Below are positions 708 to 18,193 of a DNA stretch of 18,193 nucleotides, in pieces. The position numbers and the translations under genes were made by a program. Below the pieces are notes generated by a model that was not told the DNA's origin, did no database searches, and worked only from the letters and a program-made list of their open reading frames with translations. Source of the DNA: Calditrichaceae bacterium (GTDB lineage: Bacteria > Calditrichota > Calditrichia > Calditrichales > JBFXGD01); contig JBFXLE010000043.1 in the NCBI GenBank assembly GCA_050173015.1, positions 1-18,193 of the forward strand. Direction: 5' to 3'. Each line of letters opens with the position of its first letter. Position 1 is the stretch's first letter.

Positions 708-771
708 TTTTTATTCGTATTATTCCTCATAAAAAAATTTTGAATTATCTTAATAATCAAATTAAATCAAT

Positions 772-2891: not shown

Positions 2892-2897
2892 CCAATC

Positions 2898-3008: not shown

Positions 3009-3132
3009 CGCCGGCTTTATATTAAAGCAAATCACATTTACATAAAATTCAACTTTATCGGCATGAATATTTCTCTTTCCCGTGATTAATTGCTCTTGTC
3101 CCGTTACTTTTTAACCCGTCCCGTCAGCTTTT

Positions 3133-3472: not shown

Positions 3473-3584
3473 GGCGCGTTATAACCCGTCACGGACCGAT
3501 TTTTACCGGAAATATTATTGTTTATTTAATTGATCAAAAACAAGTTGGATAAAGAGATGGGAAGAAATCCGTACCGCTGATAAA

Positions 3585-6275
3585 TTATTCCCCTACCTTT
3601 AGTATTTTTTTTATAAACCGCGCTAATTCGGACGGAGAAAAAGGTTTTTGTATAAAATTTGAATTTTCGGCCATCCGGTTCCCGTCTTCGTGATTGTCTA
3701 AATCCCGGTGTCCGGACATATAAATGACCGTGATACCGGGTCGGTCGGTTTTTATTTTTCGCGCCATCTCGGTACCGTACATTTTTGGCATCACAATATC
3801 CGTGAGGATTAAATCAATATCCCCCTGATGTTCCCTCGTGATTGCCAATCCATCGGTGCCGTCCGCGGCTTCGATCACATTGTAACCGTATGTCCGCAGA
3901 GTTTCTCCCACCAGTGTCCTGACGGCATCTTCATCTTCCACTACCAAAACGGTTTCACTGCCCGTTAAATCATTCTCATCAATGGCCGGGGATTCTTCAA
4001 CGACTAAAGTTCCGCTTTCAGCGGGAAAATAGATACTAAATGAAGTTCCTTTACCGGGCTCGGTCTCCACAAATATATGACCGTTACTTTGGCGAACGAT
4101 TCCGTAAACTGTTGACAACCCCAGGCCCGTTCCTTTGCTTTTATCTTTTGTACTAAAAAATGGCTCAAATATTTTTTCTTTTACCTTGCTGTCCATACCG
4201 ATACCCGAATCCGTTACCCGCATCATCACATATGGCCCGCTATCCATATCCGAAGCAGTCGTCCGGGTATTCTGATCAACGCAATGGTTCGCTGTTTCAA
4301 TAATTAATTCACCACCCTTTGGCATAGCGTCCCGGGCATTTACCGCCAGGTTCATAATGATCTGTTCAATTTGGGAAGGATCCGCCTTTATCGGTTTTAA
4401 TTCATCTTCTAAATTTGAAATGAGTTTCACATCCTCCCCGATCAGTCGATGAAGCATTTTCCCCATATCGCTGATCAAATTATTCAAATCAACAACCTTA
4501 GGCTGCAAAATCTGTCTGCGGCTAAAAGCGAGCAATTGCTGTGTCAGCGCCTGCGCCCTGTTGGCCGATTCTATAATGACTCTGAGATTATCAGATGAAT
4601 ACTCATCGTCTGATAAACGTCGAAGCAATAGTTCGCCATATCCAAGAATTACGGTAAGCATATTATTAAAATCATGGGCGACCCCACCCGCCAACTGACC
4701 GATGGCCTCCATTTTCTGGGACTGTCTCAACTGCTCTTCAAGCTGATTTCTTAAACTGATATCCAATCCCACGGCGAGTACGGCAAATGTATTTCCATTT
4801 TCATCCCTCATCAATGAATTTTGCCAGGATATCAATTTTTTTAGTCCTGATTTGCAGACGATCAGATTTTCATTCATTTTAAGACCGGTCGTTCCGTGAT
4901 AGAACTGATGATAGAATTTTATGAGATCTTCCCTGATTTCATCCGGAACGAATAAATCAAACCAGTTTTTACCCAATACATCTACCCTGGAGTAGCCTGT
5001 CAGATCGGCGGCGTATTTATTGAACTCAAGAATCGTTCCTTGTTCATCAAGCGTGATGATCAGTTCAGGGGCTGTTTGAATAATATTTTCATTAAATCTT
5101 TTTTCCTTCCTGAATTTCTCATCGGCATCTTTCATCCTTGTTATATCGATCCCCACCAGAACAGCCGCTTGATTCTGATTATATTTCTGCGCGACCATCA
5201 GCATATCCCGGTATCCGTCGTGTATGCTTGTTCTTACTTCTCTCGCAATCTGAACGGCGTTACTCCTAAAAAATTCTTTAACGAACCGGACAAAAACGGG
5301 ACTTTTACCCATAAAACCGACTTCTTTGCCGATAATTTCATCGGGGCGAATATTCAATCCTTCCCAAAGATATCGATTAACACCCAAATATTTTAAATCC
5401 GAACTGATCCAGGAAACACCCCCCGGAACCGCGTCTAATACGGCCTGTATCTGATCACGGGTATGCCTCAGATCCCGCTCCGCAATAACCCGGTCGGTTA
5501 CATCCTCCGCCAGACTCAAAATCCCGTCAGCGCCCCCGGGAAGCGGCACTTTGGTCTCATGCAATTCCATATAACAAACAGTGCCGTCATGCCTGATGCT
5601 CTTTTCCGAATGTTTCAGCAGTTCCCCGGATAACAGCCGCGCGATATTTTTTTCAACTAAATGCACCACATCCGGATGGGTGAGCATTTGTACTTTTTTC
5701 CCTACCAGCTCATCTCTGCTGTATCCAAGGGATTGGCAGACCGCCGGATTCGCGTCTATGATATACCCGTCTTTATCCTCCAGAAGAATGCCGCTCGGTG
5801 AAAGATCGAACAGGATATGATATCGTTCTTCTTTGTCACTCAGGAACTTCTCAGAAGCGTTTTTCAGCTTAAAAATATATCCGGTCAGCCTGTTTTCCGC
5901 GTTTCTGACCGGCAAAATTTTTACTCTTACTTCAGCACCCTTCCTGCCTTTTTTATCAAAACCGATATATACGGCTACTCCTTCCGGTAGTCCTGAAGTA
6001 TTGATATTTTCCAAATATCCGGTTAAGGAGGTTGATGAGTTCACCGCGGTTTTTAATCTCATAACCTTGTCCAGATGAAGACCGGTTAAATTTTCATCCG
6101 TCGATAGTATCATTTCTTTAGCGGCTTTGTTGATGAAATTAATCATACCGTATTCATCAGTCGTAATGACGGGATCTTCCAGCGTGTTCAACGCGTCAGC
6201 AAAGAAATCCATAGGCCTGTCCTGGCTCATATTCTTTTTTTTGATTTTCCGTAAATTTTCAATATTCTTTTTCAA
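3585..6275 (-). CDS. Cytoplasmic multi-PAS hybrid sensor histidine kinase/receiver (CckA-like architecture)
   Basis: About 4 PAS/PAC repeats, H-box QSQKMEAIGQLAGGVAHDFNNML, N-box NLAVNARDAM, G boxes DSGIGMD / FEPFFSTK / GTGLGL, and a C-terminal receiver (VVEDE, LILTD, QKPF). The TTG start at 6275 is uncertain; ATG at 6230 or 6212 are alternatives. Confidence 0.93.
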   Translation of the reverse strand: MKKNIENLRKIKKKNMSQDRPMDFFADALNTLEDPVITTDEYGMINFINKAAKEMILSTDENLTGLHLDKVMRLKTAVNSSTSLTGYLENINTSGLPEGVAVYIGFDKKGRKGAEVRVKILPVRNAENRLTGYIFKLKNASEKFLSDKEERYHILFDLSPSGILLEDKDGYIIDANPAVCQSLGYSRDELVGKKVQMLTHPDVVHLVEKNIARLLSGELLKHSEKSIRHDGTVCYMELHETKVPLPGGADGILSLAEDVTDRVIAERDLRHTRDQIQAVLDAVPGGVSWISSDLKYLGVNRYLWEGLNIRPDEIIGKEVGFMGKSPVFVRFVKEFFRSNAVQIAREVRTSIHDGYRDMLMVAQKYNQNQAAVLVGIDITRMKDADEKFRKEKRFNENIIQTAPELIITLDEQGTILEFNKYAADLTGYSRVDVLGKNWFDLFVPDEIREDLIKFYHQFYHGTTGLKMNENLIVCKSGLKKLISWQNSLMRDENGNTFAVLAVGLDISLRNQLEEQLRQSQKMEAIGQLAGGVAHDFNNMLTVILGYGELLLRRLSDDEYSSDNLRVIIESANRAQALTQQLLAFSRRQILQPKVVDLNNLISDMGKMLHRLIGEDVKLISNLEDELKPIKADPSQIEQIIMNLAVNARDAMPKGGELIIETANHCVDQNTRTTASDMDSGPYVMMRVTDSGIGMDSKVKEKIFEPFFSTKDKSKGTGLGLSTVYGIVRQSNGHIFVETEPGKGTSFSIYFPAESGTLVVEESPAIDENDLTGSETVLVVEDEDAVRTLVGETLRTYGYNVIEAADGTDGLAITREHQGDIDLILTDIVMPKMYGTEMARKIKTDRPGITVIYMSGHRDLDNHEDGNRMAENSNFIQKPFSPSELARFIKKILKVGE

Positions 6276-6557
6276 ATTAACATAATCCGATTCTTTTTGC
6301 CTATCAGATTAACATCAATGACCGAAAGATGGGTCTGAGTAAAAATCTCCTCAGCCAAACCGGCATATACATTCCTAACATATTAAAAGGTTAGATCACC
6401 AGAGAATATATGAATTTCAATCACCGGATACATAATCGATATCACAAAAAACAACTTTATTCTATGTCACACAAATCCCGGGGGAATCTTTTACGCGTTA
6501 AAAGATGAAAGATTTGCAGGTTACCTGTCGGGGATGGCAGGTCAATTAAATGAAACT

Positions 6558-9509
6558 TCAATGATCCAGGACGTCCCGGACTTTTTTGGCGAGCGCGTTG
6601 AATGAATAGGGTTTGTGAATAAAATTGATCCCTTTTTGCAGCACTCCGCTGCTAACAATCCGGTCATCCGTATAGCCCGAGGTGAATAACACTTTGATTT
6701 CCGGAATAATTTTCTTCAGGGCTTCCACCAGATCTTTGCCGCCCATTTCCGGCATAATCACATCGGTCATGATCAGATCAATTTTAATCTTCTTGCTTTT
6801 CACAAGTTTAAGGGCTTCCATGCCGTTGGATGCTTCAAGAATTTTGTATCCGAATGACTCAAGAGCAAAGCAGGCGATCTTTCTTACATCAAGATCATCT
6901 TCAACGACCAATACTGTTTCATTTCCCGTTCCCATTTCCCGTTCCTCTTCCTGTTCATATAACTGAATATCCTTTTCATCAGATTGCGGCCAGTAAATAT
7001 TGAATATGGATCCTACTCCCAGTTCTGTTTCAACAAAAATACATCCGTTATTCTGCTTTACGATTCCATAGACGGTCGCCAGACCCAAACCCGTGCCTCT
7101 CTCTTTTTCTTTTGTCGTAAAAAACGGCTCAAACATTTTTGCTTCCGTGTCCTTATCCATCCCTGTTCCATTATCTTTTACGGCCATTTTCACGTATGGT
7201 CCCAAATTACTCCCGATGTGAGCGGACACAAATTCTTCATCGAGATAAACCGGTTCGGTTTCGATGGTGATTTCTCTGAAAGATCCGTTTTTCGTTTTTT
7301 GGTTGATCGCGTCTCTTGCATTGATAACAAGATTTATAAGTATCTGCTCAATTTGAGCCGGATCGGCTTTAATCGGCTTTATCTGATCCGATAAATTGCT
7401 CTTCATCATTATATCTTCACCGATTAACCGATGAAGCATTTTTTCCAATTCCAAAATCACATGGTTGATATTGATAATGCGCGGTTCAATGATCTGTTTA
7501 CGGCTGAACGCGAGAAGCTGACGCGTGAGACTGCTTGATTTTTTTCCCGCCTTCATAATGCCGATAACTTTTCCGTAAAACGGATTGTCCGCTTCCATTT
7601 GGGTAATCATCAGCTCCGCATACCCGTTTATCGCCGTCATAATATTGTTGAAATCATGAGCGATGCTTCCGGTGAGCAATCCTATGGATTCCATTTTCTG
7701 TGACTGGAACAATTGCTGTTCAAGTTTCCGCTCGTTGGTGATATCTCTCTTTACGGCGGCATAGTTCATGGTTTTTCCGGTTGTGTTTTTTATGGGAAAA
7801 ATGACTGCTGTTTCATAAAAAACCGATCCGTCTTTCCGCTTATTGGCAAAAGTTCCTGTCCAGGTTTTATCAGCGATTAATGTATTCCATAAATTCTTAT
7901 AAAATTCGTCCGGGTGCTCTCCGCTTTTCAGGATACGCGGATTCTTCCCCATGACTTCCACAAATGAGTAACCCGTTACTTTTTCAAATGTCGGATTCAC
8001 ATATTCGATCTTACCGGTTATATCCGTGATAATAATCGATTCACTGGCCTGTTCAACAACGGATGCCAGTATTGATAGCTGTTCATCGACACGCCGGTCC
8101 TGAGTGATATCGCTTAAGATGGTCATAATACCCGAAATTTCACCGTTATTATCTCGAAGAGGCGCTGTGGAAACACGGATATCCAGAATTGTCCCGTCTT
8201 TTTTTCTTCTTTTTACCTCTAACCCGGAAATGGATTCTCCGGACATCACTCTTTGACGCAGCGCCACAAATTTTGGATCATCGGGATCCTGTCCCAGTGG
8301 ATTTTTTTTCCCGATCACTTCAGATTCCGTCCAGCCGAATATCCGTTCGGCGGCCGGATTCCATCGCCGGACATAACCGGATGAATCGATCGAAATGATC
8401 GCCAGTGGGGACGCGTCGAACAGTGCGTTCAGCGTCTGATTTGTTTCCTTTAATTTTGATTCAGTGATCTTTGTGAAAGTGATATTACGGGCAATTCCCT
8501 GTGTCCCTTTAAATCCTCTTTTTTCAGGATTTCTCGTCGTGTACAGTCCTTCCGCGTTGAGCAGAAAAACAGGATCAGGTCTCGGAAGCATTCGCTCCTT
8601 TTCCCCGCATCTTGAGAATAAGCGGACTTCAAAATCCTTTGTGCTTCTTTCGCCTGTACGTCGCTCTTTCACATGATAGAATGCCTTTTCCCGGTCATCC
8701 GGATGAACGAGCTCAAGAATACTCTTGCCAATCAGGTCATTTGAATCGTATCCGCAATATTTGACCGCATCATTGATAAAAATAATATTCCCTTCATGAT
8801 CCAGCCGGTAAATGATATCGGGTGTATTTTTAATGATGGCGTCAAGCATCTGTTTTGTGTTTTTTAATTCTGACTCCAACTCTTTTCTTATTGTAATGTC
8901 GTGAAAAATAGCGGAAAAAGTGGTCGGTCCCTGAGGAAGAACAGTGATGCTAAAATGTTTTCTTAAGTTAAATAAATAAGTTTCAAAATATGCCGGGGTT
9001 CCTGTCTCGGTAACCTCGGCATATTTTTCGACATAAGGGGCGTGTCCCAGTTTATACAGATTGGAGGCGGGTATTCCGATTATATCTTCTTTTCTTTGCC
9101 CAAAAACAGACTCATAGGCGGGATTGGTATCGATAACCGCGTAATCGATCGCTTTACCCGATTCGTCAACGATCAGTTCATAAAATGCCGCGCTGTCCGT
9201 GATCCGGTTGAACAGCAGCTCAAAATCCGCCCCGCTGCTCACCGTCTCTAAATCATTTTTCTTTTTACTTTTACTAACCGACCTGTAAATACGGGACAGA
9301 TCGGAGAGTTCCTTTGAGATATCGCATCCCGAGCCGGATTTTTCCAATTTTTCATACAGGGCTTTTAGCCCTGTCCCGGCTTTTTCGAGAATCCGGCTCA
9401 TGGAATTGTTTTCTTTTCTGAGCCGGTCAATTACCGAATTGGCTTCATCAAAGGTTTTTGGTGTAAAATCCATTTTGCCATAAGCCATGGAGCCCGCCTT
9501 CTTGGTCAT
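6558..9509 (-). CDS. Cytoplasmic multi-PAS hybrid sensor histidine kinase/receiver
   Basis: 4 PAS domains, H-box QSQKMESIGLLTGSIAHDFNNIM, HATPase motifs (NARDA, DNGTGMD, GTGLGL) and a receiver (VVEDD, IMTDVIMP, HKPYS). No transmembrane segment seen. The start could be ATG 9488. Confidence 0.93.
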   Translation of the reverse strand: MTKKAGSMAYGKMDFTPKTFDEANSVIDRLRKENNSMSRILEKAGTGLKALYEKLEKSGSGCDISKELSDLSRIYRSVSKSKKKNDLETVSSGADFELLFNRITDSAAFYELIVDESGKAIDYAVIDTNPAYESVFGQRKEDIIGIPASNLYKLGHAPYVEKYAEVTETGTPAYFETYLFNLRKHFSITVLPQGPTTFSAIFHDITIRKELESELKNTKQMLDAIIKNTPDIIYRLDHEGNIIFINDAVKYCGYDSNDLIGKSILELVHPDDREKAFYHVKERRTGERSTKDFEVRLFSRCGEKERMLPRPDPVFLLNAEGLYTTRNPEKRGFKGTQGIARNITFTKITESKLKETNQTLNALFDASPLAIISIDSSGYVRRWNPAAERIFGWTESEVIGKKNPLGQDPDDPKFVALRQRVMSGESISGLEVKRRKKDGTILDIRVSTAPLRDNNGEISGIMTILSDITQDRRVDEQLSILASVVEQASESIIITDITGKIEYVNPTFEKVTGYSFVEVMGKNPRILKSGEHPDEFYKNLWNTLIADKTWTGTFANKRKDGSVFYETAVIFPIKNTTGKTMNYAAVKRDITNERKLEQQLFQSQKMESIGLLTGSIAHDFNNIMTAINGYAELMITQMEADNPFYGKVIGIMKAGKKSSSLTRQLLAFSRKQIIEPRIININHVILELEKMLHRLIGEDIMMKSNLSDQIKPIKADPAQIEQILINLVINARDAINQKTKNGSFREITIETEPVYLDEEFVSAHIGSNLGPYVKMAVKDNGTGMDKDTEAKMFEPFFTTKEKERGTGLGLATVYGIVKQNNGCIFVETELGVGSIFNIYWPQSDEKDIQLYEQEEEREMGTGNETVLVVEDDLDVRKIACFALESFGYKILEASNGMEALKLVKSKKIKIDLIMTDVIMPEMGGKDLVEALKKIIPEIKVLFTSGYTDDRIVSSGVLQKGINFIHKPYSFNALAKKVRDVLDH

Positions 9510-9602
9510 TTAGATCTGTTCAGCAATCTCAGTGATTTAAATCGTCCTTCTGCGATGTGAACTCTTCAGTAATTTATCATCCGTTTAAATATCGCTTTAC
9601 TC

Positions 9603-9986
9603 TCAGACCGCGATCGAAGCGGGCTGTCCGATATTCAGCAGTTGATTAACCTTGTCTTTGAGGGCCGGTACATAAAACGGTTTTTCAAAGAAACGGTCCT
9701 TGAGTATATACTTCGCCTGCATGGCAAGATCTGATTCCGGGAAAGCCGTAATGGCGATAAAGGGAATCTCTTTTTCGCTTTTTTTGACCAGATCCATTAA
9801 CTGAATACCGTCGCCTCGAGTCAAAAACAGATCAGCCAGCACAAGATCAAAGTTAAAGGCGCGGAAAGCGCTGACGGCTTCATGAAAGTCCGTGGCGTAA
9901 ACAACTTCATATCCCTCGTCTTCGAGTTCAAACCTTAGCGCCTGACGAATGGACCGTTCATCTTCAACAATTAAAATTTTAATCAT
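9603..9986 (-). CDS. Single-domain response regulator (receiver only)
   Basis: 127 aa with ILIVEDE, phospho-acceptor LVLAD, AITA and EKPF motifs. AGGAG RBS at 9992-9996. Confidence 0.92.
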   Translation of the reverse strand: MIKILIVEDERSIRQALRFELEDEGYEVVYATDFHEAVSAFRAFNFDLVLADLFLTRGDGIQLMDLVKKSEKEIPFIAITAFPESDLAMQAKYILKDRFFEKPFYVPALKDKVNQLLNIGQPASIAV

Positions 9987-10016
9987 GTCAACTCCTATGT
10001 TTTTATTAATAAATAA

Positions 10017-10032
10017 TACAATTATCGTACCA
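10017..10032 (-). promoter_or_regulatory. Putative sigma54 (-24/-12) promoter for the single-domain response regulator unit
   Basis: Minus strand TGGTACGATAATTGTA versus the consensus TGGCACG-N4-TTGCW: correct GG-N10 spacing with two mismatches, about 30 bp upstream of the ATG. Confidence 0.65.
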
Positions 10033-10035
10033 AAT

Positions 10036-10048
10036 TAAAAATTTGATT
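10036..10048 (-). promoter_or_regulatory. Putative IHF-binding site between the enhancer array and the sigma54 promoter
   Basis: Minus strand AATCAAATTTTTA is an exact match to WATCAANNNNTTR. The AT-rich context raises the chance of a random match. Confidence 0.4.
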
Positions 10049-10141
10049 GATTTTTTAAATATAATACGCGTTTAATGCTTGGTTTTTAATAACTTACAAG
10101 GAGAGTTAATCTGATTGGATAGAATTTGAAGAAAAATCCGC

Positions 10142-10204
10142 ATATGAAGGATCGTTCACATTATATGAAGGATCGTTCATATTATATGAAGGATCGTTCA
10201 TATT
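10142..10204. promoter_or_regulatory. Triple 21-bp palindromic array, putative enhancer (UAS) for a sigma54 activator, copy 1
   Basis: ATATGAAGGATCGTTCAYATT x3 (10142, 10163, 10184). The 20-bp core ATATGAAGGATCGTTCATAT is 18/20 self-complementary. It lies 110-173 bp upstream of the -24 element, and the same motif occurs at 16566-16628. Confidence 0.7.
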
Positions 10205-11604
10205 CTTTTTATTTTGAGACGTCTGATTTTTATGCTCAGCCATTCCCGGCTCATGCCTGCTTTATTAGCCGCGTCACCTAAATTCCAGAAGGTTTTCTGT
10301 AAAATATTCATAAAATACTGTTTTTCGAACTTTTCAACCGCCTCGCTGTGGCTAAGATCCAATAATTCCGTATCGACGGCTTTACCCTTTTCAGATGAAG
10401 CGGATTCCTGCATCGGTTTTGTCAGTTGCCTTAATGAAATGTTATGCGGGCCGATCACCTGTCCTTCGCAGAAAACAAAGGCATCTTCGATGATATTTCG
10501 AAGCTCCCTGACATTTCCGGGAAATTCATATGCTTCGAGCATCAGAAGCGCTTCTTCCGAAAATTTTAGTTTTTTTCTTCTTTCGTTGTTGAATTTTTCA
10601 AGGAAAAACCGGGCCAGAAGCCGAATATCCTGTTTTCTTTCCCTAAGCGGGGCAATAGTTATCTTTGTCACGTTAAGCCGGAAATATAAATCTTCTCTGA
10701 ACTTCCCGGCCTCGACCAATTTTGCCAGATCCTGATTGGTGGCCGAGAGGATCATTACATTCACATCGATGGGATTTTTTCCGCCGATTCTGTAAAAACT
10801 ACGCTCTTCAAGAACTCTCAGTAAACGCACCTGTAACGGAAGCGGTAACTCGCCTATTTCATCAAGAAAAATGATCCCTTCCCCCGCGAGTTCAAATTTC
10901 CCCTGTTTCGATGTATAGGCTCCGGTAAATGAGCCCTTTTCATGGCCAAACAATTCGCTTTCAATTAAGTTTTCCGGAATGGCGGCGCAGTTGACGGGAA
11001 CAAACGGGGCGTTCTTTCTGACACTGTTAGCGTGTATGGTCCGGGCTATCAATTCCTTGCCCGTTCCGCTTTCTCCGTGAATAAGGCAGGTGACAGTGGC
11101 GTCACCGGCGACTTTCTGCAGACGCTTGACCACCTCGGTCATCTGCTTTGATTTACCGATGATGTTGTAGTCGCTGTACTGTTTTTGGATGGTTTCTTTA
11201 AGAATCTGATTTTCCGTCGAAAGCTGCGTTATTTGAATTTTTTTTTTAAGCATGCTTTCAATCCGGTAGCCAAGTTCCGCGAGACCAAATCCTTTTGGAA
11301 TAAAATCATCGGCGCCGGCTTTCATTGCCTTTACGGCGTTATCAACCGTGTCAAACGCGGTCATGGCGAGAATAACCGGATTATACCACTGGGATCTTGC
11401 TTCGCGCATCACCGAAATACCGTCTTCAATATCCGGCATCATTAAATCGGAAACCACGAGATCAATTTCGTGCGCCGCGAGAATCTTGAAGGCTTCCTCC
11501 CGGTTCGACGCCGTATAAACCTCATATTCCGGATTTTCCTGAAGATTGAACTCAATTCCTTTGAGCATAGAAACTTCATCATCCGCGATAAGTATGCGAT
11601 ACAT
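10198..11604 (-). CDS. Sigma54-dependent NtrC/AtoC-family response regulator (receiver-AAA+-HTH)
   Basis: Receiver (ILIADDE, VVSDLMMP), Walker A GESGTGKE, ESELFGHEKGSFTGA loop, Walker B FLDEIGE, FREDLYFRL, PGNVREL and a Fis-type HTH at the C-terminus. Confidence 0.96.
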   Translation of the reverse strand: MYRILIADDEVSMLKGIEFNLQENPEYEVYTASNREEAFKILAAHEIDLVVSDLMMPDIEDGISVMREARSQWYNPVILAMTAFDTVDNAVKAMKAGADDFIPKGFGLAELGYRIESMLKKKIQITQLSTENQILKETIQKQYSDYNIIGKSKQMTEVVKRLQKVAGDATVTCLIHGESGTGKELIARTIHANSVRKNAPFVPVNCAAIPENLIESELFGHEKGSFTGAYTSKQGKFELAGEGIIFLDEIGELPLPLQVRLLRVLEERSFYRIGGKNPIDVNVMILSATNQDLAKLVEAGKFREDLYFRLNVTKITIAPLRERKQDIRLLARFFLEKFNNERRKKLKFSEEALLMLEAYEFPGNVRELRNIIEDAFVFCEGQVIGPHNISLRQLTKPMQESASSEKGKAVDTELLDLSHSEAVEKFEKQYFMNILQKTFWNLGDAANKAGMSREWLSIKIRRLKIKRI

Positions 11605-11689
11605 GTGTCTATTTCCTGTTTAAAAATTCAATGGTATAAAATATAAAAATTGATCATTAAAATCCCAAAAATCTTTAATAATCACTTCA

Positions 11690-11878
11690 CTCAACTCTTT
11701 TCCCTTAACGCTCATTAATTCTTACTTCTTACTTCCTACTTTTCACTTAGGGCACGAGCATCGTGCCCCTACTTTCCCCTCTTCTCTTTTTTCTTTTATC
11801 TTTTATCTTTTTTCTTCAAATTCCCGGACAAGATCTTAATTCCTACTTCTTACTTCTTACTTCTTACTTCCTACTTCC
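11690..11878. repeat. Heptamer-repeat element (TTCTTAC/TTCCTAC) containing a GTAG-type REP hairpin
   Basis: Tandem heptamers at about 11719-11739 and 11839-11876. Hairpin GGGCACGA-GCA-TCGTGCCC followed by CTAC (11750-11772), i.e. GTAG plus stem on the minus strand. 11799-11825 is the exact reverse complement of 17448-17474. Confidence 0.75.
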
Positions 11879-11880
11879 TC

Positions 11881-13302
11881 TCATCCCGGGTACTTTGGCA
11901 GACTGATGGTAAAAGCCGAGCCTTCGCCTGTCTTGCTCTCCACATCAATTTTGCCGCGGTGGGCGATAACCGCTTTTTTCACCATCGCCAGACCCAGCCC
12001 GTGCCCTTCATTTTTCATCGAAAAGAACGGACGGAAAATGGTGGCGAGCCGGTCTTCAGGAATACCAACCCCCGTATCGGATACCGTAATTTTCACATCA
12101 TCTTCCACCGAGGTGAGAATCGTAATTTGCCCCTTCCCGGAGATAGCTTCAGCGGCGTTGGTCAACAGATTTTTCAGGGCCATCAGCAGCATCTGGTAAT
12201 CCCCCGGAATCTCGGGAACTTTTTTGCTGAATTTTTTAACCACCGGAATCGATTTGAGATGGACCTCATCCAGCGCGTGTTCTATGAGTTCATTTATGCG
12301 TATGGGTTCGACTTTCAGCTGGGTTGAACGCGCGATATCAAGCGTTCGTTTTGTAAAATCTTCCAGCTTTTGAGAAGCCAGCAGAATTTCGGTCGAGTAT
12401 TTTTTTAACGGGCTGTCATCTGTGAGTTTGCGATGCAGACCATCGGCCAGAAGATGAATTCCGCTCAACGGATTCTTCAGATCATGGATAATATAAGAAC
12501 TGAACTCCCCGATCATGATCAAATTTTCATTGGCGATGCGTTCATCAATCAGTGTTTTTAATTCATGCGATAATTTATTTAACGATTGAACAAGATCTCC
12601 TATTTCGTCGGTTCGCTCGATTTCCAGATTGGCCTCGAGGTTACCCTTTCCGTACTCACTTGCCAGGTCAACGACATCGCGGATTGGCTGAGATATGGAT
12701 CGGGCGAAGGAGTAGGACAGGAACAGACTGATCAGTATGGCCGCGATACCGATTCCGATAATCGTGCCAAGCAGACCTTTGTAAGTATCTTCAACCGAAT
12801 ATTTGATACGCGCCGTTCCGACGCGTTTATTCAGTTCAAATATCGGCACGGCGGTATCCCAGATTTCCGAACCGTCATCGCCGGTTTCACTCTGCAATAA
12901 AAATGTATCCGTGGCAAGCGCGCGGTCGGTCAGCGGGTCGCTGTATTTGCGTCCCCGAAGTTCCGGAGTATTGGAAGCGATCACTTTTCCCGTGGTGTCG
13001 AGCAGCGCGATGGAGGTGATGTCCGGGCCGTCGCTCATGCTGTCGATAAGAATCTGCAACGTGATATAATCATCCAGCAATATGGCGTTCAGGCTGGAAT
13101 ACGCCAGCGTGCGCGTCAGGCTAAAGGCTTTCTCCTGAGCCTGTCTGAGCAGCGTCTGTTTCTGGAAATAGAAGACAGCCGCCGAGACGATACACACCAC
13201 CAGTATCACCAGGCCGCTGAAATAGACAAAGAATTTGCCCTGCAGATTCAATCGAGATTTTTTGCCAAACATGTTTGATCTGTTTTTTACGATATTTGTC
13301 AT
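11881..13302 (-). CDS. Membrane-bound sensor histidine kinase (TM-extracytoplasmic Cache-like-TM-HAMP-HisKA-HATPase)
   Basis: Two hydrophobic segments, HAMP (ISQPIRDV...DEIGDL), H-box IIHDLKNPLSGI, NLLTNAAEA, DTGVGI and GHGLGL. It starts 7 nt after the binding-protein stop and is the likely cognate kinase of the downstream NtrC-type regulator. Confidence 0.94.
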   Translation of the reverse strand: MTNIVKNRSNMFGKKSRLNLQGKFFVYFSGLVILVVCIVSAAVFYFQKQTLLRQAQEKAFSLTRTLAYSSLNAILLDDYITLQILIDSMSDGPDITSIALLDTTGKVIASNTPELRGRKYSDPLTDRALATDTFLLQSETGDDGSEIWDTAVPIFELNKRVGTARIKYSVEDTYKGLLGTIIGIGIAAILISLFLSYSFARSISQPIRDVVDLASEYGKGNLEANLEIERTDEIGDLVQSLNKLSHELKTLIDERIANENLIMIGEFSSYIIHDLKNPLSGIHLLADGLHRKLTDDSPLKKYSTEILLASQKLEDFTKRTLDIARSTQLKVEPIRINELIEHALDEVHLKSIPVVKKFSKKVPEIPGDYQMLLMALKNLLTNAAEAISGKGQITILTSVEDDVKITVSDTGVGIPEDRLATIFRPFFSMKNEGHGLGLAMVKKAVIAHRGKIDVESKTGEGSAFTISLPKYPG

Positions 13303-13309
13303 TAAAATA

Positions 13310-14806
13310 TCAGTTATTCAACTCAATCTTATGATATTGAATAATGCCGTATGGATTAACCGGCAACGTTTTGATTTTCTCGCGATTATATGCAAAATGC
13401 GGTTTGACGTGATACAAAAAAACCGCCGGTGTATCTTCTAAAATTTGTTCCGTGATTTTTTTATACAGCTCCTGACGCCGTTCAGGATCGGATTCCAGCC
13501 TGGCCTGATCGAGCCACGCGTCAACCCGCGCATTTTGGTAGTGTAAGGTATTAAATTCTGACTTTGAATGAAAGAAGGAACGCAAAAAACTTTCCGCGTC
13601 ACCGATAACAGAGCTTTTTCCACCATCAATAAAAAGCTGCGCGCTATCGCTCATAACAGCATTTATATGTTCTTCCCAAGTATCGAACATCGTCACTTCA
13701 AGGCTTATTCCAATTTTAGCAAGATCAGATTTAATCATTTCAACAATTGTCTCTCGCACAAAACCAACTTTTGGAAAATATAGTTTTAATTTTAAACCAT
13801 TTGGATACCCCGCCTTAGCTAACAAAATTCTGGCTTCTCTAATATTAAATGACTCTTGAAAAATTCCATTATAATCTAAGTAAACTGGAGGCAAAGGTCC
13901 TTTCGCAACTATTGCATTTCCTCTATTCACATTTAGAACTAATCTAGGTATATTAATCGCTTTTAAAACTGCCTGTCGTAGATATAAATTATCCACAACC
14001 TTATTTTGATTGTTAAAGCCTAAATAAAAAACACTTACGGGTTTCTGAACTAAATAATCTACTTTCCCTTGCCATTTTAATCTATCAATAGACAAACCTG
14101 ATACCATATAGAGAATATCTACATCATTTGTTAAGATTGATTTTTCTCTATTAAATTTATCTGAGTAATATTTAAAATTTATACTTTTAATCTTTGACTC
14201 CCCTTTTCCCCAATACAAATCAAACAGCTTCAATTCTACCTTAATTCCCTCATCAAAACTGGAAATTTTATAAGGACCGGTACCTGTTGGATGAAATGAT
14301 AAATTATTGGCTTGGTTCTCAATGGCCTTTTTTGAAATAATTACAAAACCTATTGGACTTGTTAGTTCATAAAGAAAAGTTGAGTTAGATTGCTTTAGAT
14401 TTATCTTAAAGCTCATAGAATCTAAAATTGTTATTTCTTCTATAAGATCAAATAAAGAGGATTTTGGATTTTTTAAGTTAAACCAATCAAATGAAGATTT
14501 GACATCATCTGTATGCAAGGTGGAACCATCATGAAAGACAATGTTTTCTCTTAAATAAAATGTATATTCCTTATTATTTTCAGAGATTTTCCAATATTTA
14601 ACAAGATGAGGATGAACTGTAGAATTATCTTCGTCAATCGTTACAAGAGGTTCATAGATTTGTGAATAAATCATTAACTCATCGACTCCAAAGTTCTCAG
14701 ATGGGTCCAATCCTTTTGGAAAATACTTAATAGCTTGGGTCACTGAAGGCTCATTACAACTTCCTAAAATGAATATTAATGTTAAAATAATAAAAATGTT
14801 TTTCAT
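13310..14806 (-). CDS. ABC-type peptide/nickel substrate-binding lipoprotein (SBP family 5, OppA/DppA-like), orphan
   Basis: Motifs LDP...IYEPLV, YTFYLRENIVFHDG..L...DVK.S, GTGPYK and LRQAV. Start revised from GTG 14851 (inside a hairpin) to ATG 14806, which gives the signal peptide MKNIFIILTLIFILGS-C with a lipobox. No permease or ATPase genes in the window. Confidence 0.9.
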   Translation of the reverse strand: MKNIFIILTLIFILGSCNEPSVTQAIKYFPKGLDPSENFGVDELMIYSQIYEPLVTIDEDNSTVHPHLVKYWKISENNKEYTFYLRENIVFHDGSTLHTDDVKSSFDWFNLKNPKSSLFDLIEEITILDSMSFKINLKQSNSTFLYELTSPIGFVIISKKAIENQANNLSFHPTGTGPYKISSFDEGIKVELKLFDLYWGKGESKIKSINFKYYSDKFNREKSILTNDVDILYMVSGLSIDRLKWQGKVDYLVQKPVSVFYLGFNNQNKVVDNLYLRQAVLKAINIPRLVLNVNRGNAIVAKGPLPPVYLDYNGIFQESFNIREARILLAKAGYPNGLKLKLYFPKVGFVRETIVEMIKSDLAKIGISLEVTMFDTWEEHINAVMSDSAQLFIDGGKSSVIGDAESFLRSFFHSKSEFNTLHYQNARVDAWLDQARLESDPERRQELYKKITEQILEDTPAVFLYHVKPHFAYNREKIKTLPVNPYGIIQYHKIELNN

Positions 14807-14842
14807 CTCTTCTAAATTTGTTTTTACAGAACAGAATTTAGA

Positions 14843-14876
14843 TCTCTGCACTCTCTCTAAATAGAAAGTGCAGAGA
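14843..14876 (-). terminator. Stem-loop immediately after the peptide gene (leaky terminator or mRNA-stabilising hairpin)
   Basis: 14-bp stem (TCTCTGCACTCTCT / AGAAAGTGCAGAGA, one G.U pair on the minus strand) with a 6-nt loop, 10 nt after the peptide stop. The U-tract is weak. Confidence 0.65.
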
Positions 14877-14886
14877 GTCTATTAAT

Positions 14887-15006
14887 TTAGTTAATACTTT
14901 CACCACAAGCTCTTAGAATAATTCCCATATTTGCCACAAAAAATGAACTTAATAAAAATTTAACCGGTGCAAATTTCTTTACATTCTTACGCATTTTCTT
15001 TAACAT
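14887..15006 (-). CDS. Unannotated 39-aa peptide, candidate precursor/signal peptide: MLKKMRKNVKKFAPVKFLLSSFFVANMGIILRACGESIN
   Basis: GGAGGG RBS at 15014-15019, 7 nt before ATG 15006, and TAA at 14887-14889. It fills the gap between the radical SAM and SBP genes in the same orientation and is followed by a hairpin. Basic N-terminus, hydrophobic middle, single Cys near the C-terminus. Confidence 0.8.
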   Translation of the reverse strand: MLKKMRKNVKKFAPVKFLLSSFFVANMGIILRACGESIN

Positions 15007-15064
15007 TTTCAATCCCTCCGATTAATAAATGAATGATTTTTTAAAAATAAATTCTATCTTTCGC

Positions 15065-16459
15065 TTACTTCATACTGGTCAGCATTGCTTTTAGCGGTTT
15101 TAAACGCCAGATCAACGACTTAATAAATATCCCCGGTTTTAACATCACCCTGAATAAATTCTCTTCCACATTGAGCATCTTCAGCCGCGCCGCTGTCCAG
15201 AAGCGCAGTCTAAAATCATAGCCCGTCAGATAATTGTCTTTGGTGAGTAATCCCCGGGCCTTATAATCACGGTACACCCTGCTGCCGGGATAAATCTCCA
15301 GTTTTTTGTTCACTGAAATCTGGCAGTTGCGGCTGTTGAAATAACGCTGTTTTAATTCAAAAATGATCATAAACTGTGTCAGCAAATCCCATAAAGAGGT
15401 GTGGGCGTCCGCCAGGATCACCGACGCGATTACATCGATTTTTAACCGGTACAGGGTGATCACCGCTTTTAGATTCTGTCGTACCGAGATCTTTTTGTTA
15501 AACCGATTGAGCTGTCTGACATCAAAGGATTCCAGTCCCATAAATACCCGCTGCAGACCGACGGACTTCAGGCGCGTCATCACTTTTTTGCTGACGGTAT
15601 CCGCCCGGCACATCAATTCAAATCGTACATCGAGATTTCTTTGTTCTATTTCAGAGGCGAATTCATCTACGATTTCAAAGGCCTTGTTTCCTTTTACCAG
15701 AAACTGATCATCGTTAAAGATAAAATAATCGGTTCCAAATTCCGCCTTTAACTGTTCCATCTCATCCACCAGGCTTTTGGCGGAACGGCGGCGCCATACT
15801 TTGCCGGGACTTGTTCCATAGAGACCGATAATATCACAAAAAGAGCACTGCCCCCAGCATCCCCGTGTTCCGTAAACGCGCAGATGTTTGTCATGTTTTA
15901 GTACTTCACGGGCGTATTTGCGATCAACCGCCGGCAGTATATCCAGATCATGAATCAAAGGACGGGCCGGATTTTCGATGATCTCACCTTTTTCCCGATA
16001 CGAAAGCCCCTGAATATCAGAATACCCGGCGCCGGTCTTATTGAGTTCGTATTCCATCAGCTCCGCCAGCGTCAGTTCGCCTTCACCGCGAACCGCGAAA
16101 TCGATTTCAGGAAAATCACGCAGAATATCGGCCGAGTTAAATGTCGCGAAGTATCCGCCGATGACGATCTTTCCTTTGTACCCCGCTTTTTTCAGCCCTT
16201 TTGCCAGCGTGAATCCCTTTTTCTTCGAATCATCCAGCAGCGACAAGCCGATCATTTTGGGATTGATTTCAAGCAGACGTTCCAGAGCGCTTTGAACCGG
16301 AAGCGCTTCTACAGCCATATCCAGCGTATCCGCCTTAAATCCTTCCGAACAGACAAACGATTTCAGACTGGCGATTCCAAGATGCTCAGTGACCTGCTCA
16401 AATCTTGAATCCCCCGGATTGACTAAAATTATATCCATATCGCTCCTGTAAGCTTTCAT
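15065..16459 (-). CDS. Cobalamin (B12)-binding radical SAM enzyme (class B methyltransferase-like)
   Basis: N-terminal B12-binding domain (ILVNP, EHLGIASL, IVIGGYFAT, RGEGE), CxxxCxxC motif TRGCWGQCSFC, FNDDQF and GLES. Start revised to ATG 16459 (AAAGGA RBS) or 16438 (AGGAG), because the track's TTG at 16501 overlaps the sigma54 promoter. Confidence 0.92.
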   Translation of the reverse strand: MKAYRSDMDIILVNPGDSRFEQVTEHLGIASLKSFVCSEGFKADTLDMAVEALPVQSALERLLEINPKMIGLSLLDDSKKKGFTLAKGLKKAGYKGKIVIGGYFATFNSADILRDFPEIDFAVRGEGELTLAELMEYELNKTGAGYSDIQGLSYREKGEIIENPARPLIHDLDILPAVDRKYAREVLKHDKHLRVYGTRGCWGQCSFCDIIGLYGTSPGKVWRRRSAKSLVDEMEQLKAEFGTDYFIFNDDQFLVKGNKAFEIVDEFASEIEQRNLDVRFELMCRADTVSKKVMTRLKSVGLQRVFMGLESFDVRQLNRFNKKISVRQNLKAVITLYRLKIDVIASVILADAHTSLWDLLTQFMIIFELKQRYFNSRNCQISVNKKLEIYPGSRVYRDYKARGLLTKDNYLTGYDFRLRFWTAARLKMLNVEENLFRVMLKPGIFIKSLIWRLKPLKAMLTSMK

Positions 16460-16484
16460 TTCAATTCCTTTCTGCATATTGTAC

Positions 16485-16500
16485 TTCCAAAATCGTGCCA
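16485..16500 (-). promoter_or_regulatory. Putative sigma54 (-24/-12) promoter for the radical SAM-peptide unit
   Basis: Minus strand TGGCACGATTTTGGAA: perfect -24 box TGGCACG and GG-N10-GA with a divergent -12. The predicted transcription start is just upstream of the RBS of ATG 16459. Confidence 0.65.
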
Positions 16501-16565
16501 AAAATAAAATAGTGAGCTATTGTCTTGTTATTATTGCATTTATACAAAAACAGCATTTTTGCCCG

Positions 16566-16628
16566 ATATGAAGGATCGTTCATATTATGTGAACGATCCT
16601 TCATATTATGTGAACGATCCTTCATATT
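16566..16628. promoter_or_regulatory. Triple 21-bp palindromic array, putative enhancer (UAS), copy 2
   Basis: ATATGAAGGATCGTTCATATT (16566), then ATGTGAACGATCCTTCATATT x2 (16587, 16608), which are the inverted form of the unit at 10142. It lies 67-129 bp upstream of the -24 element. Confidence 0.7.
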
Positions 16629-16771
16629 GATCTTAAAAAATGTCAAGTCTTGTATATAAATTCTAGGGAGGAAAAGAGATAAATTAAAAGAATTTTAAAA
16701 ATTTATTATAATTGTTACCGAATATCGGAGACATGTTAAAAATTTGAACTGTTTTTGAGCCTGGAGAAAAC

Positions 16772-16808
16772 AAAAAAAGGCTTACGGAATTTTCCCGTAA
16801 GCCTTTTT
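16772..16808 (-). terminator. Intrinsic terminator after tRNA-Thr (bidirectional shape)
   Basis: A7-GGCTTACGG-loop-CCGTAAGCC-T5: a 9-bp stem with A/T tracts on both sides. Confidence 0.85.
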
Positions 16809-16816
16809 CTTACCCG

Positions 16817-16889
<73 letters not shown>

Positions 16890-16926
16890 GGTTATTTTAA
16901 AATATTATGTTGTTGAAAAGGCGTCT

Positions 16927-16955
16927 AATTTAATGGAAATTGCGCTTCAACGCAA
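16927..16955 (-). promoter_or_regulatory. Putative sigma70 promoter for tRNA-Thr
   Basis: Minus strand TTGCGT-N17-TAAATT, followed by a GC-containing discriminator (AGACGCC). Confidence 0.5.
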
Positions 16956-16970
16956 TAATCCTTCCATTTT

Positions 16971-17315
16971 TTATCGGAACGGACCTTCTATGGTGATTTT
17001 GTTTCCCGTGCAAAGATCACACTGACATATTTTTCTGAGATAATCGTAAGTGTAAATTCCTGTTTTGTGATTGTCGGAAAACTTGAAACTGATGGCGTAG
17101 CGGCCGATCATTTCCCACTCACTCAGCACGACATTTCCCGGATTAGTCTTCATAACATACAGGGGATTATCTGTCTTTTTTGCCCGCTCCTCTTCACAAA
17201 CCGCGCAAGGACAATTTTTGCGCAAATCTTTCGCGAAATATACACTTTCGTGACCGTCACTCCATTCGATGGTCAACGCCTCATCACTGATCTGATCGAT
17301 CGAAACCGGATGCAT
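16971..17315 (-). CDS. DUF971 / gamma-butyrobetaine hydroxylase-like N-terminal domain protein
   Basis: 114 aa with the motifs IEWSDGH.S.Y, LR.NCPCA.C and IGRYAI.F.FSDNH.TGIY.YDYLR. AGGAG RBS upstream. Confidence 0.85.
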   Translation of the reverse strand: MHPVSIDQISDEALTIEWSDGHESVYFAKDLRKNCPCAVCEEERAKKTDNPLYVMKTNPGNVVLSEWEMIGRYAISFKFSDNHKTGIYTYDYLRKICQCDLCTGNKITIEGPFR

Positions 17316-17376
17316 CCTGAACTCTCCTTATTTTTCGCTAAATTACATTATTATTTTGAATCAATCAAATGGATTA

Positions 17377-17518
17377 TAAGAAGTGGGAAGTAAGAAGTAG
17401 GAATTAAGAAGTAAGAAGTAAGAAGTAGGAAGTAAGAAGTAGGAATTGGGAATTTGAAGAAAAAAGATAAAAGAAAAAAGAAAAGATGGAAAAGTTAAGA
17501 GTTAAAAGTAGGGGCGTT
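17377..17518. repeat. Heptamer-repeat element (TAAGAAG/TAGGAAG family), copy 2
   Basis: 11 tandem heptamers at 17377-17453, then purine-rich AAAAGAT/AAAAGAA units ending in GTAGGGGCGTT. It is inverted relative to the copy at 11690-11878. Confidence 0.8.
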
Positions 17519-17713
17519 TCAAGTCGGGCATGCGATGTCATAGTCAACCGCGGTGAAACCGGTTAATCTACCCGTATGTCATGCCGCCGGCATCTTTGGC
17601 TACCTTGGAAAGATGTAGAAAAAAAGATTCTTCGGGGCGAATTTTCTGTTCGAGTGTAATAATATGAAAAATGGATAAATGATACACGAGTTAAAATTCG
17701 CCAGGGCTTTTTG

Positions 17714-17739
17714 CTACTTTTTGGCCATTCAAAAAGTAG
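17714..17739. repeat. Perfect 10-bp hairpin ending in GTAG
   Basis: CTACTTTTTG-GCCATT-CAAAAAGTAG. Confidence 0.5.
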
Positions 17740-17751
17740 GGAGAAGAAGAA

Positions 17752-17860
17752 AAGTGGGAAGTAAGAAGTAGGAAGTTAAGATAAAAGAAAAAAGATAAAA
17801 GAAAAAAGAGAAGATAGAAAAGTTAAGCGTTAAGAGAAAAGAGTTAAGATTAGGGGCGTT
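17752..17860. repeat. Heptamer-repeat element, copy 3
   Basis: TGGGAAG TAAGAAG TAGGAAG followed by AAAAGAT/AAAAGAA units and AGCGTTAAGAGAAAAGAGTT (near-identical to the reverse complement of about 11693-11712), ending in TAGGGGCGTT. Confidence 0.7.
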
Positions 17861-18193
17861 CCTGTTCGGGCGCCAGGGTAGCGTCAACCGGACCGACACG
17901 ATGACCTGCGGACTGACATGTGGGAGTCAGGAAAATTTTTCCAAATCAGTCCCATAGCCCCCGGATGTCATGCAGGAGGCATCTTATTCCTATTCGGGAT
18001 AAGTGTCTTCTCAAATACAAATGATTACAGGTGATTCTTCCTGGGTAAACACTGACCCTCCCCTCGATCCCCTCCCTTATGCCAGGCTGTTGCAGATTAT
18101 TGTTGAGGGGATAGTTCATATTACGTAAATTTATTGCCATAAACTGAGTCATACTTTTAAGGATTTTTATGGGATTTATATCAAGCGACCGTT

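Follow-up and report, generated by a model that had tools for sequence, protein, structure and literature searches.

A 39-residue peptide encoded beside a B12-binding radical SAM enzyme in Calditrichota: a candidate autoinduced signal with an exchangeable putative receptor

Is a reading frame of 39 codons, lodged between the genes for a radical S-adenosylmethionine enzyme (rSAM) and a substrate-binding lipoprotein (SBP) of a Calditrichaceae bacterium, a gene at all, and if so, what would its peptide be for? The open reading frame (ORF) in question, P0001, occupies positions 14887..15006 (stop codon included) on the minus strand of an 18,193-nucleotide stretch of contig JBFXLE010000043.1 (positions 1 to 18,193; assembly GCA_050173015.1), which we analysed over its full length and hereafter call the window; it begins with an ATG at 15006 and ends with a TAA at 14889-14887. 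An earlier note on this DNA had flagged the ORF as a precursor-like peptide gene and had read its cysteine as the mark of a lipoprotein signal or of an AgrD-type precursor. Herein we report that the ORF recurs next to orthologous rSAM genes, that its second half has been exchanged between near-identical strains together with much of the neighbouring SBP gene, and that the cysteine is not conserved. Our favoured interpretation, to which we assign a probability of roughly 0.55, is that the peptide would be an autoinduced signal modified by the rSAM, its leader being constant and its variable part fitted to the SBP as receptor.

A small gene that accompanies one clade of radical SAM enzymes

A Shine-Dalgarno (SD) sequence, GGAGGG, lies at 15014..15019 on the minus strand, 7 nt ahead of the ATG, just as the earlier note had described, and strong SD sites with a spacing of 4-8 nt also precede the homologues of the peptide. 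An alternative start two codons upstream, at TTG 15012, was rejected because all homologues begin at the methionine equivalent to that of ATG 15006. The encoded peptide has seven lysine or arginine residues among its first 16, followed by a hydrophobic stretch, the motif Leu-Arg-Ala-Cys and five polar residues, an architecture that had likewise been described correctly. Directly after the stop codon comes the stem-loop of the original description (14839..14881, minus strand), with a 14-bp core stem and a folding energy of -27 kcal/mol (z = -5.7) that was equalled in none of 200 shuffled sequences. It has no T-run and was not called as a terminator in our terminator scan, and it is probably a partial terminator or a stabiliser of the 3' end. 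Eight of 17 loci have a comparably strong hairpin (z <= -2.9) 3' of the peptide gene and the other nine lack one; a T-run is present in three of those eight (both copies in genome G030, and locus L092). A universal terminator after the peptide gene was rejected on this count, and the presence of a hairpin or T-run terminator in several loci suggests that the producer genes (rSAM and peptide) and the sensor genes downstream are often separate transcription units.

How far the small gene is shared was judged around orthologues of the rSAM, which is encoded at 15065..16459 on the minus strand and in which a B12-binding domain (PF02310) and a radical SAM domain (PF04055) were the only domains found. 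Orthologues were taken as sequences of 50-99% identity, all remaining matches lying at 24-32% and coming from other phyla and from archaea. They occur in 9 of 41 related genomes, in 10 of 58 loci from the genome collection, all of them from Calditrichota (Calditrichaceae, Calditrichia, Caldithrix), and in 9 of 80 retained metagenome loci. A homologue of the peptide, 36-41 aa in length, is encoded 3' of the orthologous rSAM in 18 of the 18 loci that include downstream DNA (the window; the nine genome loci G001, G030, G037, G035, G025, G004, L034, L035 and L036; and the eight metagenome loci L087, L088, L090, L091 (peptide cut by contig end), L092, L093, L094 and L095); G024, G040 and L089 were left out of this count because their contigs end too early. 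In G035, G025 and L091 a receiver gene is interposed between the rSAM and the peptide genes. Searched over whole genomes, the peptide was found at E <= 1e-14 in exactly 7 of the 41, namely those with a full-length orthologous rSAM, while two marginal profile matches, in G008 and G018 (E ~0.007-0.009), fell within ORFs of 172 and 251 aa and were not counted. Over the 25,255 stop-to-stop ORF pieces of loci L021-L166, matches of the peptide profile were confined to the orthologous loci (E <= 7.5e-7), and no peptide homologue was found at the ~120 loci around the rSAMs of 24-32% identity, where the best profile match had E = 0.033. The same profile retrieved 15 sequences, all of 39-41 aa, from 1.84 billion cluster representatives (50% clustering) and 20 from a set of 5.8 billion proteins; the family is small, and its members are unnamed or "hypothetical" wherever sources carry them. 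No family in Pfam or NCBIfam covers the peptide, and a look-up in the ESM Atlas returned no usable match. The gene is both adjacent to and co-occurs with a putative radical SAM maturase, as is typical of precursors of ribosomally synthesised peptides that are modified after translation (RiPPs).

Since the ORF, its length and a strong SD recur in every assessable orthologous locus, the frame lies beyond what chance would provide, and the pattern of codon changes between close pairs of loci points in the same direction. Over codons 18-34, the comparison of G035 with G025 gave 6 identical, 10 synonymous and 1 non-synonymous codons, that of L034 with L035 gave 5, 9 and 3, and that of the two peptide copies (a and b) in G030 gave 6, 8 and 3, respectively. 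Judged from this conservation and codon pattern, on which a chance ORF was rejected, the 39-codon ORF is a genuine gene, conserved within Calditrichota, and the preponderance of synonymous changes in close pairs shows that purifying selection is acting on the peptide at the protein level. The idea of a precursor-like small gene, with which the earlier note began, is in this respect upheld.

Two genomes carry the peptide gene in more than one copy. On contig C82 of G030 (locus L023, 3958-7532) the whole rSAM-peptide unit is duplicated in tandem, the first peptide copy being of 36 aa with a different and shorter tail, and the first rSAM copy having no obvious sigma-54 promoter in the 300 nt upstream. 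On contig C154 of G025 (locus L021, 885-1275) there are at least two, and possibly three, tandem peptide genes around a run of N. The genes for SBP, kinase and regulator of this genome lie at the end of a separate contig, C5, and the assembly therefore probably breaks in the peptide-gene repeat.

The family comprises 40 unique members (39 for counts at the C-terminus), and its alignment is highly conserved at columns 1-12 and 18. Met1, Leu2, Lys3, Lys4 and a Lys-Lys pair at residues 10-11 are conserved, Phe17 is invariant (40/40), and Ser or Thr is found at residue 21 in 39 of 40 members, followed by Phe or Tyr at 22 and Gly or Ala at 24. The middle of the peptide is variable (residues 25-31 and 33-35, alignment columns 26-32 and 34-36), apart from an Arg or Asn at 32 in 35 of 40 members, after which conservation rises again towards the end, where residue 36 is often Arg and residue 37 often Ser or Thr, the penultimate residue is aliphatic (37/39) and the final one is Glu, Asn or Asp (32/39). 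A conserved leader joined to a variable core is the arrangement of a RiPP precursor, and the residue changes between near-identical strains are largely confined to codons 18-34. At the same time the N-terminus has the layout of a Sec signal, that is a positively charged n-region with six or seven Lys/Arg in the first 16 residues and an h-region in the usual range of ~7-15 residues; the hydrophobic block covers alignment columns 13-25, and columns 25-26 are rich in Gly, Ala or Pro.

An exchanged block across the peptide and binding-protein genes

Alignments, codon comparison and a breakpoint in DNA similarity at 14956 divide the peptide gene into a constant, leader-like part (codons 1-17, 15006-14956, minus strand) and a part that varies between strains (codons 18-39, 14955-14890, minus strand). 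The breakpoint is seen against metagenome contig L087, whose DNA agrees with that of the window at 98% identity over a stretch that starts upstream of the rSAM gene and reaches 14956 (codon 17), where the close match stops. The proteins on either side differ accordingly, with 98.8% identity in the rSAM and 49% in the SBP, an orphan family-5 (OppA/DppA/NikA-type) lipoprotein that is encoded at 13310..14806 on the minus strand and whose homologues show a lipobox. The DNA match with G001, a genome of the same genus, breaks at the same position (14956/14957); here the identities are 90% for the rSAM, 95% for the kinase and 58% for the SBP, a figure that is made up of 36-54% for its first ~400 residues and 90-98% for its final 100. 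Residues 1 to ~400 of the SBP are thus the strain-variable part of that protein and the last ~100 its conserved part. The near-identical strain, L087, has an SBP that differs from the window's as much as SBPs of other genera do (45-47%), the path between window and L087 in the SBP tree amounts to 1.07 changes per site, and L087 groups there with G001 (support 99/99). In the rSAM, by contrast, the window groups with L087. The variable part of the peptide follows the SBP in this respect, placing L087 with G001 against the window.

Contigs from independent assemblies agree with this picture. A single contig of 5007 nt from run X2 matches the window at 11852-13603 (16 differences) and again at 14956-16700 (23 differences), and between these two matches 1339 other letters replace the window's 1352. 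A contig of 2311 nt from run X5, which belongs to another study, matches from exactly 14956, and the 1074 letters preceding that point are unlike the window. In run X6 the match of one piece ends at 13606 and is followed by 62 unlike letters, while another piece of this run that starts at 14956 was not used, as this is the contig's own end. The window's version of the block is without cover in runs X5, X6 and X7, and the evidence used here consists of the bridging contig from X2 and the contig from X5. From this agreement we take the exchanged block to be a cassette at 13604..14955 (minus strand), made up of codons 18-39 of the peptide gene, the hairpin between the two genes and the part of the SBP gene for residues 1 to ~400.

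Within the peptide gene, the comparison of the window with L087 gave 15 identical, 1 synonymous and 1 non-synonymous codons over codons 1-17, and 2 identical, 5 synonymous and 10 non-synonymous over codons 18-34. The last five codons (35-39, encoding GESIN) gave 3 identical, 2 synonymous and no non-synonymous changes. As the GESIN codons differ only synonymously, the tail appears to have been kept by selection inside an otherwise diverged block. The locus therefore has the layout by which pherotype systems are recognised, in that a hypervariable block spans the putative signal gene and the ligand-sensing part of its putative receptor between flanks that are 98-99% identical, and its exchange as one block implies that the system appears to exist in several key-and-lock variants. 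Such natural allelic cassettes would serve as ready-made specificity controls.

Regulation, a candidate signalling circuit and its alternatives

Downstream of the SBP gene lie those for a sensor histidine kinase (11881..13302, minus strand; sCache_3_2, HAMP, HisKA and HATPase domains) and a sigma-54-dependent response regulator (10198..11604, minus strand; REC, AAA+ and HTH_8), the latter reaching 306 bits against the LuxO model, whose cut-off is 800. The order rSAM, peptide, SBP, kinase and sigma-54 regulator is kept in the window, G001, G030, G004, L034, L035, L036, L092 and L094. A sigma-54-type promoter (-24 element TGGCAC, with a -12 element) precedes the rSAM-peptide operon at 16486..16500 on the minus strand, and a GG-N10-G(C) element was found 45-79 nt before the conserved rSAM start in 10 of 10 loci examined (nine by pattern match, G004 by eye). 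For the rSAM itself the likely start is ATG 16459, in preference to TTG 16501, which was rejected because it overlaps this promoter. Three tandem 16-bp palindromes spaced 21 bp apart, which are putative sites for a sigma-54 activator, lie at 16568..16625. Two or three such palindromes of the type GTGAAC-N4-GTTCAC, with a spacing of 21-22 bp and ~100 bp upstream of the promoter, are present in 9 of the 10 loci (strict in seven, as variants in G037 and G025), the region being cut by the contig end in G035. A second set of three tandem sites (10144..10201) and a second sigma-54-type promoter (10018..10032, minus strand) precede a single-domain response regulator (9603..9986, minus strand), the first gene of a second sigma-54 unit, and two PAS-rich hybrid histidine kinases (6558-9509 and 3585-6275, minus strand), which are probably the output phosphorelay. 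This promoter and its sites stand at the same place in G004 and, in degenerate form, in G030; the single-domain regulator is also present in both of these genomes, and in G030 the equivalent place is likewise taken by a PAS hybrid kinase.

In the window the 16-bp site is present in six copies, against 0.01 copies expected by chance, and the 4.3-Mb genome has eight, six of these being at the two promoters of the cluster and two on contig C37, whereas a reversed control pattern has no copy genome-wide. The genome also has rpoN. The simplest reading of these sites is that the cluster's own sigma-54 regulator would drive both the rSAM-peptide and the receiver/hybrid-kinase operons. An SBP beside a kinase without permease or ATPase genes, together with sigma-54 promoters and activator sites, is moreover the arrangement of a binding-protein-dependent sensor.

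Two further occurrences of these elements were seen. On contig C37 (locus L167 of the window's genome, G000; ~516-670) there is a third cluster of palindromes, with two exact-class sites and one degenerate site at 610-670, next to a near-consensus sigma-54 promoter (minus strand, ~531-516) directed toward a lipoprotein gene that is cut off by the start of the contig (2-187); here the same regulator probably has its third target. On contig C77 of G004 (locus L024), the promoter, activator sites and first rSAM codons are duplicated (~840-1400 versus 5250-5520), 260 upstream nucleotides being identical letter for letter between the copies. The upstream copy retains only an rSAM fragment (1191-1385, with 54% identity to residues 287-351) and is probably a decayed second rSAM.

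The exclusive pairing with the rSAM, the duplication of the peptide gene, its constant and variable halves and the co-inheritance of the latter with the SBP make an autoinduced signal the most economical reading. Starting from what can be observed in the DNA, namely the gene and its conservation, the gene order, the conserved promoters and sites and the cassette, the circuit may be pictured as follows. A sigma-54 promoter with two or three activator sites would drive the rSAM-peptide pair, which a hairpin or terminator after the peptide gene would often part from the sensor genes. The rSAM would recognise the constant N-terminal 17 residues and modify the peptide, a likely site being the conserved C-terminal end with its aliphatic penultimate Ile, Leu or Val. 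The basic and hydrophobic N-terminus would then take the peptide to or across the inner membrane, where a housekeeping peptidase may free the C-terminal part, this step being the weakest of the scheme. In the periplasm the orphan OppA/DppA-type lipoprotein would bind the peptide, as gene order and co-inheritance with the variable part suggest, and on the same grounds it would signal through the sCache/HAMP kinase to the sigma-54 regulator. By binding to the palindromes, the regulator would close a positive feedback on the rSAM-peptide operon and pass its output to the receiver/PAS hybrid-kinase operon. The nearest solved relatives of the SBP are an unnamed SBP (5u4o), YliB/GsiB, HbpA, DppA and NikA, with OppA and SapA types coming next, and the ligands of these relatives are short peptides, glutathione, and heme or nickel complexes. 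A complex prediction for the mature SBP (residues 18-498) with the 39-aa peptide scored 0.02 against a mark of 0.32, and such a score is evidence neither way.

Several observations weigh against a modified and released signal. All members of the peptide family are known from sequence alone. The rSAM has no NCBIfam assignment, all its matches being far below the cut-offs (BchE 127 bits, HpnJ 113, HpnR 105, ApyD 104, rSAM_ocin_1 88 and the MCR glutamine methylase 71), and neither a RiPP recognition element (RRE) nor a SPASM domain was found by Pfam in the window. No exporter or leader protease was found among the window genes or in the flanks of G030 and G004, as the earlier note had already remarked for this cluster. 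Calditrichota are diderm, and a released peptide of more than ~600 Da would therefore need a route across the outer membrane if it is to act from cell to cell. By a crude -3/-1 rule a candidate cleavage site falls within residues 24-35 in 32 of 40 members, at a varying column, and in none of the remaining eight; the invariance of Phe17 and of Ser/Thr21 inside the hydrophobic stretch is unusual for a plain Sec signal; and the uncharged span of 13-24 residues (at least 19 in 26/40) also fits a membrane anchor. The window and L087 share the last six residues of the peptide despite 49% identity between their SBPs, so that the SBP, if it reads the peptide, must read more than this hexapeptide. Finally, selection on an exposed lipoprotein alone could drive the cassette, with the back half of the peptide hitch-hiking.

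A different role for the peptide would be that of an uncleaved micro-protein, anchored by a single pass with its N-terminus inside and its C-terminus outside. Its periplasmic tail of 7-9 residues, or its helix, would contact the SBP, the kinase or both, as a third sensor subunit or a tethered ligand, and the rSAM would act before insertion or on the cytoplasmic basic end. The succession of a Lys-Lys pair, a span without charge (19-20 residues in most members) and an Arg or Asn would suit such an anchor, as would the lack of a fixed signal-peptidase site; Phe17 and the Ser/Thr21-Phe/Tyr22 pair lie one helical turn apart, which suggests helix packing, and co-inheritance with the SBP fits a protein-protein interface equally well. 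However, in one clade the span is only 13-16 residues, followed by acidic residues, and is too short for a bilayer helix, the Gly, Ala and Pro residues at columns 25-26 accumulate as they do at the h/c boundary of cleaved signals, and a tethered subunit leaves the pairing with a cytoplasmic rSAM and the tandem peptide repeats without a reason. We consider this role unlikely, if worth keeping in view. The classic layout of polymorphic toxin-immunity loci, too, joins a constant N-terminus to a C-terminal part that varies, with a downstream gene co-varying; proteins of the LanI and SapA types sequester antimicrobial peptides, and the production of nisin is autoinduced by a two-component system. 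The peptide might by analogy be a bacteriocin-like, rSAM-modified product that is sequestered by the variable lipoprotein and autoinduced by the two-component system, the cassette swap being a toxin-immunity polymorphism. That layout is seen at the swapped cassette, the peptide is cationic and hydrophobic, and SapA-type antimicrobial-peptide-binding proteins are matched by the profile of the SBP with a value of about 1e-47. We nevertheless hold this to be improbable, as there is no exporter or ABC immunity transporter (window; flanks of G030 and G004), what the regulon's second promoter drives are signalling proteins rather than resistance genes, and the SBP is always followed by the kinase, with its last ~100 residues conserved while the rest varies. 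A conserved SBP end beside a conserved kinase fits a receptor that must keep docking to its kinase.

The best rSAM matches are as much enzymes of small molecules and lipids (BchE, HpnJ, HpnR, OxsB) as peptide methylases, and the true ligand might accordingly be a non-peptide product of the rSAM, such as a methylated small molecule or lipid. The ORF would in that case be an accessory, for example a membrane anchor of the enzyme or a translated leader that tunes the SBP via the hairpin, and the hairpin 3' of the ORF in 8 of 17 loci could be taken in this sense. It is, however, the amino-acid and not the nucleotide sequence that is conserved, the hairpin is absent in 9 of the 17 loci, the peptide gene is amplified in G025 and duplicated with the rSAM in G030, and the receptor comes from a peptide-binding SBP family and co-varies with the peptide rather than with the enzyme, all of which makes this explanation quite improbable. 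Least probable of all, in our estimate, is the proposal of the earlier note that a conserved cysteine is lipidated, as in a lipoprotein-type substrate of signal peptidase II, or cyclised as in AgrD, with release of a cysteine-initiated hexapeptide. The window allele does carry Leu-Arg-Ala-Cys after a basic and hydrophobic N-terminus, and its close relatives P0002, P0004 and P0021 share the cysteine. Across the 40 members, however, this column is occupied by I15, V8, M6, C4, T3, S1 and A1, among others, with Val in the same-genus G001 and Thr in P0008, and the eight members with any cysteine have it at four different columns. A lipobox follows the pattern [LVI][ASTVI][GAS]-Cys after the n- and h-regions; the motif of the window fails the strict form because of its Arg at -2, and no member (0/40) has a strict lipobox at this position. 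Nor did the Pfam scan of the 10 window ORFs, or the flanks of G030 and G004, reveal an AgrB-like gene. Of the three features that the earlier note had proposed to follow in related loci, the ORF and the ribosome-binding site are conserved and the cysteine is not, and both the lipoprotein and the AgrD reading were rejected on this ground. As judged from the family alignment, the cysteine of the window allele is an allele-specific residue and not a site of lipidation or thiolactone formation.

If the peptide is an rSAM-modified autoinduced signal, its closest functional parallels would be the pherotype loci of Gram-positive bacteria, agrBDCA in Staphylococcus, comQXPA in Bacillus and comCDE in Streptococcus. 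As in these, a small precursor adjoins a modifying enzyme and a sensor kinase system, with autoinduction by its own regulator as deduced here, and a hypervariable signal and ligand-sensing block lies in conserved flanks, so that near-identical strains would carry different key-lock pairs. Unlike them, the present system belongs to a diderm host and has a B12-binding rSAM in place of AgrB or ComQ, a variable receptor part that is a separate family-5 SBP lipoprotein instead of the membrane domain of the kinase, and a sigma-54 activator with no encoded exporter or protease, and it is known from sequence alone. To our knowledge, pherotype peptide autoinducers, which are textbook knowledge in Gram-positives, are essentially undescribed in diderm bacteria. 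Sensors that combine an SBP, a kinase and a sigma-54 activator are exemplified by AioXSR in arsenite sensing and by LuxP-LuxQ feeding LuxO, and the window shares with them an orphan binding protein without permease genes beside a kinase and an NtrC-type regulator, as well as sigma-54 promoters with upstream palindromes. It differs in that the presumed ligand is encoded in the locus under the same regulator and in that the SBP belongs to the peptide/nickel family 5. The Phr peptides of Bacillus derive from pre-pro-peptides of ~40 aa with a Sec signal, and their C-terminal pentapeptide signal is bound by OppA. Similar here are the precursor length of ~40 aa, the basic and hydrophobic export-like N-terminus, the conserved short C-terminus and the partner from the OppA family, whereas Phr peptides are unmodified, imported and act on cytoplasmic Rap proteins, and the present peptide is paired with an rSAM and with an SBP that stands beside a kinase without permease genes.

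With regard to the enzyme, PoyB/C and the rSAM_ocin_1 type are B12-rSAM peptide C-methyltransferases, and the nearest solved structures of the window's rSAM are OxsB, TokK and CysS. QCMT is presented as a further B12-rSAM peptide C-methyltransferase in one account (PMC13469106), and another speaks of streptide and other RaS-RiPPs as radical-SAM RiPPs under quorum-sensing control (PMC13361665). The window resembles such systems in its short precursor adjoining an rSAM, its conserved leader-like part with a variable remainder and its B12-binding plus radical SAM architecture, while it departs from them in matches far below cut-offs, the lack of SPASM and RRE, an export-like leader, and a different regulation and receptor. 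The geopeptide system was rejected as an assignment, TIGR04280 not being among the 22 NCBIfam families that match the rSAM at E <= 0.01. With AgrB and a conserved cysteine, a lipobox and TIGR04280 each looked for and not found, the locus is, as far as its encoded features tell, a member of none of the systems compared. A literature search at the level of titles and abstracts found no description of this system, and supplements might hold cluster lists.

A bolder extension of the favoured reading, which we regard as possible yet rather doubtful, is that Calditrichota practise genuine quorum sensing or kin recognition by peptide, complete with pherotypes. A B12-rSAM-modified peptide would be exported with no transporter dedicated to it, and an interchangeable lipoprotein receptor of OppA type would read it and feed a sigma-54 phosphorelay; strains would diversify by exchanging the signal-receptor cassette, the alleles of which would be as old as genera. 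We know of no peptide signalling described for this phylum. Whichever form it takes, the locus is a compact candidate, with one enzyme, one 39-aa peptide, one SBP, one kinase, one activator and recognisable promoter sites. It would point to a peptide as the likely substrate of a B12-dependent radical SAM clade that is as yet uncharacterised, and it may represent the recruitment of an OppA-family protein as the variable half of a receptor.

Neighbouring genes and minor observations

All genes named here lie on the minus strand, in the order tRNA-Thr (16889-16816), rSAM, peptide, SBP, kinase, regulator, receiver, two hybrid kinases and an AbgT transporter (2280-772), and no gene for an ABC permease or ATPase, a peptidase, an exporter or an AgrB-like protein was found in the window. 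At 16782-16889, the tRNA-Thr(CGT), followed by a hairpin with a T-run terminator, stands directly upstream of the activator sites of the module. The module is patchily distributed (7-9 of 41 related genomes), and together with the adjacency to the tRNA this would make a tRNA-adjacent accessory island possible. With the queries used, both closed genomes among the relatives were without the module, and no carrier in culture was encountered.

Further upstream, at 16971-17315, a 114-aa protein with several cysteine pairs has its sole match in the N-terminal domain of gamma-butyrobetaine hydroxylase-like proteins (PF06155); as far as we could see, it has no relation to the module. The stretches 11720-11880 and 17400-17850 contain purine-rich, low-complexity dispersed intergenic repeats, with units like GAAGTAAGAAGTA or its complement. 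Many unrelated contigs stack on 11834-11879, with a summed depth of up to 1358, which looks like a high-copy family of short repeats in these genomes.

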